A DNA stretch of 64,000 nt. Origin: Dictyostelium discoideum. Its lineage: Eukaryota. The stretch is taken from the NCBI GenBank assembly GCA_000004695.1, contig CM000152.2, forward strand, positions 3,232,001 through 3,296,000, read 5' to 3'. Position 1 is the stretch's first letter, and every line of letters starts with the position of its first letter. The notes beneath the pieces are model-generated. The model was not told where the DNA came from, searched no databases, and was given only the letters and a program-made list of their open reading frames with translations. A program made the position numbers and the translations under genes. Shown one piece after another: positions 23,279 to 24,772 of the stretch.

Positions 23279-23741
23279 AAATTATTCAACAGGAATTTGA
23301 TAATGAAAAGAGTGCAAGAGATGCCATTGAAGAAATGCACGATTCAATTGTTGACGGTGAAAAGATTCTTGTAGAGAAATCACACAGTGGTAAAAAACAT
23401 CCAGATGAATGTTTCATTTGCAGAGGTCGTGGCCATTGGGCTCGTAGTTGTCCAAAAGGTGGAAGGTATGTAATTTTATTCTCTCATAAATTTTTCCGGG
23501 TTTTTTTTTTTATTTTTTTTTATTTTTTTTTTTTTTTTTTCAATTTTGGGGAATTTTTATTTTTAGAGGAATCAATAACTTTTTGTTTTTTATTTTGTTT
23601 GGACCAAATAATTGGCATCTCAATAAATAATAAGTAATAAATAATAATAAATAATAAATAATAAATAATAAATAATAAATAATAAATAATAATAAATATA
23701 AATAATAATAGTAATAATAGTAATAATAATAATAATAATAA

Positions 23742-23789
<48 letters not shown>

Positions 23790-24772
23790 TTCCAAATATG
23801 CGCATGCCATCAGTACATTGGATACCAGAAAGAAAAATGGGCATAATCAGTAATTGCAATTTGTGAATATTTCTTGGAGCCAGTAACCAGTTTTGGCAGT
23901 AGTGTTGGAAGTAAGGCGTGACCTTGATGTGACACAGTTCCACTACGTTAGATAGCCATCGGTATCTGTTTGTTTTGTTTTTGTTTTTGATTGTGCCGAG
24001 TCTCGGGGTTGCCACAAGAGTTGTGTTGTGCGGCGGCGATGATGTTGTAATGTTGTAATATTGAAGAGTGGTAAAAGGGGTGAATTTGTGGTATGACGAC
24101 GACGATAATAGCATTGGATGACGACGATGATAATAGCTACAATGATGACGATGAGCAATGCAGCGGCTATGTATGTGATTATTTGTTGTTGCCATTCCCC
24201 CCAAAGTACAGGATATGTTCCTCCTCTCCCCAAATTTGTTTTAGAATAACGGTAAATACGATCACACCTCACAAATACTAATATCTCTTTCTTTCAAACT
24301 TTTTTTTTTTTATTATTTTGTATTTTTTTTTTTTAAATAATAAAGAGGTAGAGATGGTAGAGATAGAGATTATAGAGATAATAGAGACAGAGATAGGGAT
24401 AGAGAAAGAGAAAGAGAAGGTCATTTAAGAAACAGAACTTGTTTCACATGCAATGGTGTTGGTCACATTGCAAAGGATTGTCCAAAATCAAACAGACGTT
24501 ACAATCCATACAACAACAATAACAACAATAACAATGGTAGAAATAGAGATAGAAGTTATTCTCGTTCAAGATCAAGATCACCAAGATACAGAAGCAATGG
24601 TGGAAACAGATATAGAGATAGAAGTAGAGATAGAAGTAGAGATAGAAGTGGTGATAGAAGAGGTGGAAGTGACAGAAGAAGTGGTAGAGATAGAAGTACC
24701 GAAAGAAGAAGAGAAAGAAGTAAATCAAATGAAAGAAGAAGAGAAAGAGAAGGTAACAATAGTCCACGTTAA
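22509..24772 (+). CDS. SR-family splicing factor: RS-rich N-terminal region, one RRM, two CCHC zinc knuckles and an RS/RD tail (SRSF7/9G8-like architecture)
   Basis: join(22509..23147, 23293..23465, 24346..24772), about 412 aa. Exon 1 is MDQRDSRSPSRSP...RDRSRDRNDRDRDR...RRVYVGRISNKTTRESLEDSFLKFGKVLSCDVKNGYAFV|GTATGT (RNP2 VYVGRI; RNP1 GYAFVEF is completed by exon 2, EFDNEKSARDAIEEMHDSIVDGEKILVEKS). The first knuckle is CFICRGRGHWARSCPKGG, ending AG|GTATGT (phase 2). Exon 3 (aataaag|) is RGRDGRDRDYRDNRDRDRDREREREGHLRNRTCFTCNGVGHIAKDCPK...RSYSRSRSRSPRYRS...RDRSRDRSRDRSGDRR...NNSPR*. Phases match across both introns. Intron 2 is unusually long for this genome (880 nt). Confidence 0.75.
23790..24300. 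other. GC-richer (about 45% GC) complex island inside the 880-nt second intron of the SR-protein gene
   Basis: For example ...gcgcatgccatcagtacattggataccagaaag...ggcgtgaccttgatgtgacacagttccactacgttagatagccatcggtatctg...ccgagtctcggggttgccacaagag...gcggcggcgatgatg... It is flanked by typical AT-rich intron sequence and (AATAATAAAT)n at 23640-23690. It has no convincing ORF on either strand (the 23620..24204 and 23943..24272 ORFs have no coding character). It contains acceptor-like catcag|T (23812) and donor-like GGAA|GTAAGG (23910) sites. Confidence 0.4.

Follow-up and report, generated by a model that had tools for sequence, protein, structure and literature searches.

A conserved, GC-rich, non-coding island in the one long intron of a dictyostelid SR-protein gene: a candidate element for regulated unproductive splicing

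The 64-kb stretch of Dictyostelium discoideum DNA analyzed here (64,000 nucleotides of contig CM000152.2, positions 3,232,001 to 3,296,000, hereafter the window) contains a gene for an SR-type splicing factor in which one intron, intron 2, is abnormally long and holds a GC-rich block, hereafter the island. The question raised by this locus is what the island is and what it might do for the gene. In animals and plants, SR genes are subject to a textbook feedback loop that works by unproductive splicing. The island, which lies in the only long intron of this RS2Z-like SR gene, was found to be non-coding and to be maintained by selection. The reading that we favor, and to which we give a probability of about one half, is that it represents a conserved, non-coding, exon-like module for regulated unproductive splicing of the gene, by way of a poison exon, an alternative splice site or intron retention.

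The window is dictyostelid DNA with 21.7% GC, and the closest relative found was Dictyostelium dimigraforme. The gene product has 412 amino acids (aa) with an RRM_1 domain (E 5e-15), two zf-CCHC domains and RD/RS-rich tails, and was taken on this basis as an SR-type splicing factor. The best solved relative of its RRM is SRSF6 RRM1, not SRSF7. No match to the exact 412-aa spliced protein was found in the protein collection searched. The layout of the gene is as follows (a slash within a sequence marks a splice boundary).

22509, plus strand: ATG of the SR-like gene, read directly from the sequence as three exons
22509-23147, plus strand: exon 1, by direct reading
23148-23292, plus strand: intron 1, ordinary, 145 nt, 5.5% GC
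23293-23465, plus strand: exon 2, end of the RRM and first CCHC zinc knuckle, ending in phase 2 (..GGA AG/)
23466-24345, plus strand: constitutive intron 2, 880 nt, GTATGT...ATAAAG
24346-24772, plus strand: exon 3, RD-rich linker, second CCHC knuckle, RS/RD tail and stop

Intron 1 (145 nt) interrupts the RRM directly after GYAFV, and intron 2 lies after the first zinc knuckle (CPKGG/R). A heuristic set of 20 likely introns of the window was used as reference. These introns measured 67-257 nt (median 125 nt) and had a mean GC content of 9.3% with a maximum of 14%. Intron 2 (23466-24345) is with its 880 nt far beyond this range, in agreement with the original prediction; the range of 70-150 nt that had been given for introns of the window was too narrow, and 880 nt is still far outside the corrected one. 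The island (23786-24300) has 40.4% GC compared to 21.7% window-wide, which is on par with exons, and peaks at 44-46% when GC is averaged over 100-300 nt. The non-coding, GC-rich block of roughly 500 nt that had been proposed is therefore real, and all its plus-strand frames are closed. Its strand composition is strongly asymmetric, G+T-rich at first and then C-rich. No copy of the island was found elsewhere in the 64-kb window, and a repeat or transposon origin was rejected because it is single-copy there.

Intron 2 can be divided into three parts.

23466-23813, plus strand: AT-rich 5' part ("intron 2a"), 348 nt, 13.2% GC, ending in AG 23812-23813
23814-24251, plus strand: island proper, the candidate alternative (poison) exon, 438 nt, 41.3% GC, no open plus-strand frame
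24252-24345, plus strand: "intron 2b", 94 nt, 18% GC, starting with G/GTAAAT, with TACTAAT at 24276-24282 and ending at the constitutive acceptor

Size and composition of intron 2b are those of an ordinary intron. The counterpart of intron 2a has 431 nt in D. dimigraforme and 215 nt in Tieghemostelium lacteum, and that of the candidate exon has 465 nt in D. dimigraforme (7329-7793 of its locus, L001) and about 554 nt in T. lacteum.

The candidate exon is closed to translation. The three plus-strand frames of 23814-24251 contain 8, 8, and 15 stops, and the longest plus-strand open reading frame (ORF) is 62 aa. Entry from exon 2 reads AG/T ACA TTG ... CAG TAA, just as originally proposed, and leads to a premature stop.

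23851-23853, plus strand: first in-frame stop (TAA) on entry from exon 2, after S T L D T R K K N G H N Q

An in-frame stop is reached after 13 codons in the window, after nine in D. dimigraforme (TAG) and after seven in T. lacteum (TAG). Read-through of the exon 2 donor also terminates inside intron 2. Because the stop follows the first zinc knuckle, every product containing the island would be non-productive and a probable target of nonsense-mediated decay (NMD). In both group-4 species, that of the window and D. dimigraforme, the candidate exon has a length divisible by three (438 and 465 nt) despite the many stops; this may be a coincidence, with odds of about 1 in 9. In both of these species a TAA stands directly before the conserved donor.

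The locus of D. dimigraforme (L001) was reached through its protein P0001, identified in a protein search. Four-fold degenerate sites in an exon of the neighboring glutamate dehydrogenase gene served as the neutral yardstick and gave a divergence of 21.5% between the window and D. dimigraforme (78.5% identity). Compared to this, the island is a mosaic in which about 60% falls into blocks that are 94% identical overall. Identities to D. dimigraforme over aligned columns were as follows, with the values of 84 and 88% obtained by one common alignment procedure.

Island blocks: 94%
Exon 2: 94%
Exon 3: 96%
AT-rich part of intron 2: 84%
300 nt downstream of the gene: 88%

Conservation of the blocks (94-100% identity) is beyond the neutral expectation set by the 21.5% divergence at four-fold sites. 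Together with the triplet repeats of the island they are arranged as listed.

23786-23822, plus strand: conserved block B1, TTGTTCCAAATATGCGCATGCCATCAG/TACAYTGGA, holding the candidate alternative acceptor
23840-23877 and 23893-23916, plus strand: further conserved blocks
23969-24044, plus strand: core block B4, the best conserved, with a T/G-rich run, the palindrome CCGAGTCTCGG, GGTTGCCACAAGAGTTGTGTT and GCGGCGGCGA
24063-24080, plus strand: conserved purine-rich block GAAGAGYGGYAAAAGGGG, enhancer-like
24093-24153, plus strand: GAC/GAT triplet repeats in three patches with no common frame
24158-24228, plus strand: conserved block of C-rich tracts followed by AG
24158-24251, plus strand: conserved 3' part with GTATGT at 24171, a C-rich tract with AG 24210-24211, a second C-rich tract, TTTTAG (AG 24243-24244) and then AATAACG
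24229-24298, plus strand: conserved block with TTTTAG/AATAACG/GTAAAT and the branch-like motif TACTAAT

Block B4 was identical at 60 of 62 aligned positions and carries one 1-nt indel. The perfect 11-nt palindrome CCGAGTCTCGG lies within it at 23996-24006, with the D. dimigraforme indel directly after it, and might be bound by a protein, either as DNA or as RNA. Three of the five occurrences of GACGAC in the 64-kb window fall in the island, and GAC-rich repeats are otherwise rare there. The number of GAC/GAT repeats varies between the species and the array is expanded in D. dimigraforme, where a species-specific insertion of 140 nt (L001 7631-7770) contains a second, longer GAC/GAT array including (GAC)6. 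At the end of this insertion a C-rich tract has been regenerated, followed by the conserved CCCAAATTT...TAG.

Splice-like signals were scored with position weight matrices (PWM) built from the 20 window introns. The constitutive sites of intron 2 scored 11.6 (donor) and 8.0 (acceptor). The acceptor of the original prediction (catcag/T) could be placed exactly at AG 23812-23813, with the exon starting at 23814. It lies inside a run of 31 nt without a single mismatch to D. dimigraforme, the gene model of which splices to exactly the homologous acceptor: exon 1, exon 2 and L001 7329-7356 together translate to P0001, which ends in ...CPKGG-STLEVTRKA before its stop. The candidate donors in the island are as follows, with PWM scores for both species.

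23911-23916, plus strand: GTAAGG, the donor first proposed, 7.0 in the window; GAAAGG in D. dimigraforme, not conserved
24091-24096, plus strand: donor-like GTATGA just before the GAY repeats (Y is C or T), 9.2 in the window and 7.5 in D. dimigraforme (L001 7533)
24171, plus strand: donor-like GTATGT, 8.2 in the window; GTTAGT in D. dimigraforme, 2.8
24252 (boundary 24251/24252), plus strand: donor G/GTAAAT, 6.2 in the window and 6.2 in D. dimigraforme

The sequence around the donor at 24252, TAGAATAACGGTAAATAC, is identical in D. dimigraforme. The donor first proposed, GGAA/GTAAGG with its GT at 23911-23912, reads GAAAGAAAGG in D. dimigraforme and has no GT there. The 97-nt cassette that had been suggested (23814-23910) therefore keeps its acceptor and is doubtful on account of its donor. 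Pairing the acceptor at 23813 with the donor at 24252 gives instead one exon of 438 nt between intron-like pieces of 348 and 94 nt (13 and 18% GC). The edges of the island coincide with the conserved splice signals CATCAG/ and G/GTAAAT and its flanks are intron-like; we take the conserved AG at 23813 and G/GTAAAT at 24252 as candidate splice sites bounding the island.

The same architecture was found in a more distant dictyostelid. The T. lacteum protein P0005 was identified in an exhaustive profile search with P0001, and its locus (L005) is syntenic, with the glutamate dehydrogenase gene kept beside the SR gene. T. lacteum has kept exon 2 at 173 nt, a length common to all three species (window, D. 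dimigraforme and T. lacteum), as well as the phase-2 GTATGT donor and the intron position. Its intron 2 measures 859 nt and is made up of 215 nt with 27% GC, an island of 554 nt with 41% GC, and 90 nt with 17% GC. The T. lacteum island has 12-16 stops per plus-strand frame and no internal ORF of at least 35 aa. TACTAAT occurs only twice in this intron, 45 nt upstream of the AG at the 5' edge of the island and 62 nt upstream of the constitutive AG, which is the pattern expected for two separate introns. The chance of the first of these, at the island edge, being in a suitable position was estimated at about 0.03-0.04. Cross-species conservation of the island, on which the original prediction depended in part, was found as blocks in D. 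dimigraforme and as architecture only in T. lacteum. A search for further orthologous loci gave nothing in a metagenome DNA pattern scan, and only distant SR genes in a metagenome protein scan. In two proteins of other eukaryotes with an RRM and a CCHC knuckle (P0034 and P0013), gene calls stop or enter AT-rich-looking read-through after the first knuckle (e.g., CPSS-RYNPACFLPYYYY). This hints that a phase-2 intron at this position may be old.

How could such an island act? In the mechanism that we propose, an abundant SR protein or a partner splicing regulator would bind the island, with the purine-rich stretch, the GAC/GAT repeats and the conserved core as candidate binding sites. Binding would either activate weak internal splice sites or hold the intron unspliced. 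The internal sites could be the acceptor at 23813 with the donor at 24252, or with the donor at 24091 or 24171, and the AGs at 24211 or 24244 might serve as alternative acceptors. The resulting transcripts would carry a stop just after the first zinc knuckle and be non-productive, probably as NMD targets, which would lower the amount of protein and close a negative feedback. Use of these sites, decay of the products and binding by the protein itself are inferred. D. discoideum retains SMG1 and UPF1 with S/TQ clusters (PMC5709506).

The folding of the island was compared to that of dinucleotide shuffles for window 23786-24300, L001 7300-7840, and L005 5880-6450. The plus strand folds worse than its shuffles in each case, with z-scores of +3.96 (window), +3.27 (D. 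dimigraforme), and +1.62 (T. lacteum); it was worse than 100 of 100 shuffles for the first two and 95 of 100 for T. lacteum. The minus strand of the island gave a z-score of +1.38. Poor folding is as expected for an accessible, protein-binding RNA, and suggests either selection for open single-stranded RNA or a segregation of G-rich and C-rich parts.

Poison cassette exons are reportedly present in the animal SR genes SRSF3, SRSF5, SRSF6, and SRSF7, in work said to be that of Lareau in 2007 and 2015 and of Konigs in 2020. The island resembles them in having an SR-family host and in being a conserved intronic, non-coding block with stops in all frames, whose conservation rivals that of coding exons. 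It differs in that the candidate exon is far longer (438-554 nt) than is typical and is seen here at the level of DNA sequence alone, that its acceptor is weak by the local model, and that sequence conservation fades between dictyostelid groups; sequence homology between animal poison exons and the island was neither found nor expected. SRSF7 is the closest parallel in position and motif, with the element after the zinc knuckle and with GAY-type repeats. This zinc-knuckle SR protein has the consensus GA(C/U)GA(C/U) and binds the region of its own poison exon (PMC11056844; PMC8652244). The GAC/GAT repeats of the island match this animal consensus, a motif analogy for self-regulation.

Animals, fungi and plants all have SR genes with unproductive splicing, which often affects introns of unusual length (PMC4379411, PMC1636356). 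The plant RS2Z genes atRSZ33 and atRSZ32 are autoregulated by alternative 3' splicing in a long intron (PMC1636356). The dictyostelid gene shares with them the one RRM, two CCHC knuckles and RS-type tail, one intron several times the genome norm, and conserved sequence around an internal acceptor. The D. discoideum protein was previously grouped with RS2Z, weakly, with 10-27% bootstrap (PMC3173450). In plants the long intron lies inside the RRM, between RNP2 and RNP1, whereas here it lies after the first zinc knuckle and the RRM intron is short. Poison exons and retained long introns are known from animal and fungal SRSF5-family genes (PMC4379411). Retention of a long intron in the fungal SRSF5 orthologue is similar in that it takes place in a short-intron organism, presumably with intron definition, that the regulated intron is among the longest of the genome and that its sequence is not conserved over long distances (PMC4379411). 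The fungal intron has no internal exon-like island, in contrast to the distinct block with splice-like edges seen here in three species.

Several observations weigh against unproductive splicing. The candidate acceptor scored below 0.9 bits, compared to 4.2-9.9 for the 20 reference acceptors, and no TACTAA branch motif was found upstream of it in the window species or in D. dimigraforme. Such weakness would fit a regulated exon but is also what chance would produce. The D. dimigraforme model may be an ab initio one and is therefore weak evidence that the acceptor is used. The remaining 40% or so of the island is rich in indels between these two close species. In its 7- to 10-mers the T. lacteum island had no more in common with the group-4 islands than shuffles have, and sequence homology between them was rejected with shared k-mers at chance level; the T. 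lacteum island has no GAC arrays and instead contains GA-rich runs. Binding to GAY repeats is an analogy only, because the RRM is closest to SRSF6 RRM1 and not to SRSF7. A survey of expressed sequence tags found no alternative splicing in D. discoideum SR genes, which was tied to a small number of introns (PMC3173450). Exact look-ups of the window ORFs in public assemblies, made as a source of transcript evidence, gave no match, and the module is known here from its genomic sequence. We regard the island as a solid, testable lead for unproductive splicing and not as a demonstrated mechanism.

A more specific version, which we put forward tentatively and by analogy, is that dictyostelids may autoregulate their RS2Z-like SR protein through a poison exon of about 440-550 nt, in which GAC/GAT and purine-rich repeats would be bound by the zinc knuckles of the protein itself and so drive inclusion of the exon. 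No report of SR-gene unproductive splicing in Amoebozoa was found in the literature. If the splicing reading is true, this would be the first such case, with an unusually long candidate exon. Seen beside its animal, fungal and plant counterparts, it would speak for an origin of the feedback loop in early eukaryotes, and it would offer a simple haploid, genetically tractable model for how such elements sense the concentration of a splicing factor.

Five other explanations were considered, namely an ncRNA, a DNA element, a splicing aid, a relic and an antisense gene, and each is less well supported than unproductive splicing. First, the island might be an independent, intron-hosted non-coding RNA (ncRNA), such as a small nucleolar RNA (snoRNA), another small RNA or an unstructured long ncRNA, processed from the intron or transcribed separately. 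GC-rich non-coding sequence is typical of RNA genes in this genome, and the island is conserved in D. dimigraforme and found at the same place in T. lacteum. Against this, the Rfam covariance scan found no family at gathering thresholds in the window, L001 or L005, and in evalue mode only noise at E of about 6-9, the best match in the island being sR2 (13 bits, E 8.8). Neither tRNA nor tmRNA genes were found. By direct reading no box C/D pair was matched, as the UGAUGA at 24144 has no downstream CUGA; a box C/D snoRNA was rejected for this reason and because the sR2 match is noise. All three islands fold worse than shuffles, and the primary sequence is not kept in T. lacteum. With no Rfam match and poor folding a structured ncRNA or snoRNA is unlikely; the ncRNA offered by the original prediction as its alternative found no support, and we consider an ncRNA of any kind improbable.

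A telomerase RNA was also entertained and dropped. The telomerase RNA of D. discoideum has not been identified (PMC6592521), and a template for the irregular A-G(1-8) telomere repeat could be seen in CCTCCTCTCCCC at 24220-24231. In D. dimigraforme this tract reads CCTCCTCTCTCCAC and is not kept exactly, and a pyrimidine tract in front of a conserved AG is the better explanation for it. Shuffles are moreover more structured than the RNA, and nothing similar aligned in T. lacteum.

Just as improbable as an ncRNA is a role at the DNA level, in which the island would serve this gene or a neighbor as intronic enhancer, silencer or internal promoter and CCGAGTCTCGG would be the site of a dimeric factor. 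A perfect 11-nt palindrome in the most conserved block would fit such a role. Promoter elements in this genome look like GC-rich boxes in AT-rich DNA, a similar conserved patch is found in the upstream intergenic region, and in both public annotations a second gene begins within the island or directly behind it. The features at the island edges are on the other hand strand-specific, splice-like signals and the composition is strongly strand-asymmetric. A DNA element leaves the stops in all plus-strand frames and the intron-like flanks unexplained, and about 500 nt is large for an enhancer in a compact genome.

Slightly less probable again is a constitutive splicing aid that involves no regulation, in which a stepping-stone exon or a juxtaposed 3'/5' site (TTTTAG/AATAACG/GTAAAT) would allow the 880-nt intron to be removed in two steps by intron definition. 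A conserved acceptor at 24244 that is followed after 7 nt by a conserved donor at 24252 is compatible with this, as are the flanking pieces of normal intron size in a window where the other likely introns do not exceed 257 nt. It does not explain why the intron is long to begin with, nor why three species keep some 440 nt of GC-rich sequence in which conserved blocks are found.

We find it hard to believe that the island is a functionless relic still to erode, be it a decayed coding exon, an insertion or an expansion driven by microsatellites. Its indel-rich 40% between close species, the GAC/GAT arrays behaving as unstable microsatellites and the absence of sequence similarity to the T. lacteum island are all as a relic would have them. 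The blocks are however conserved like exons against 21.5% divergence at four-fold sites, and strong AT mutation pressure should erase 41% GC. The presence of an island of the same architecture in a distant genus and its single copy in the window also speak against a relic.

A minus-strand protein is the least probable of all and was rejected: the minus strand has ORFs of 194 aa (window) and 181 aa (D. dimigraforme) and is unusually poor in stops (1-4 per window frame, none in one D. dimigraforme frame), but the frames are not collinear between the species, most indels between them are not multiples of 3, a 1-nt indel in the most conserved block shifts the frame, no Pfam family was found above noise and the T. 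lacteum island has no long ORF on either strand. The shortage of minus-strand stops is compositional, because the plus strand is depleted in TTA/CTA/TCA in all frames. The antisense frames of 194, 109, and 181 aa span window 23620-24272 and L001 7278-7823, both on the minus strand.

Both public annotations split the SR gene in two at the long intron (D. dimigraforme, L001 6001-8274; T. lacteum, L005 5001-7003). In T. lacteum the frame of the first model (P0005) stays open across the donor of exon 2 and runs on into intron 2 (...CPKAGRYVKQS); the second model begins with an ATG that lies within the 3' end of this intron. We attribute this recurrent two-gene annotation error to the island in the long intron. 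For the second D. dimigraforme model (L001 7644-8274), 11 two-intron solutions fit its length. One of these (L001 7734-7870) uses the 7-nt AATAACG as a micro-exon, through which the GAC repeats, in their poly-Asp frame, are joined to the RS domain; ten of the 11 candidate products, including this one, were absent from the protein collection.

The glutamate dehydrogenase gene that neighbors the SR gene is divergently oriented to it. Between the two lies a GC-richer intergenic patch (window 21650-21800, L001 5200-5290), in which the motifs CGAATATTT, TTCCTTTGGGA, CGCCGAAGTT, AAGTTAAGGTGG and GGTCGCYAAAA are common to the window and D. dimigraforme. These motifs are probably shared promoter elements.

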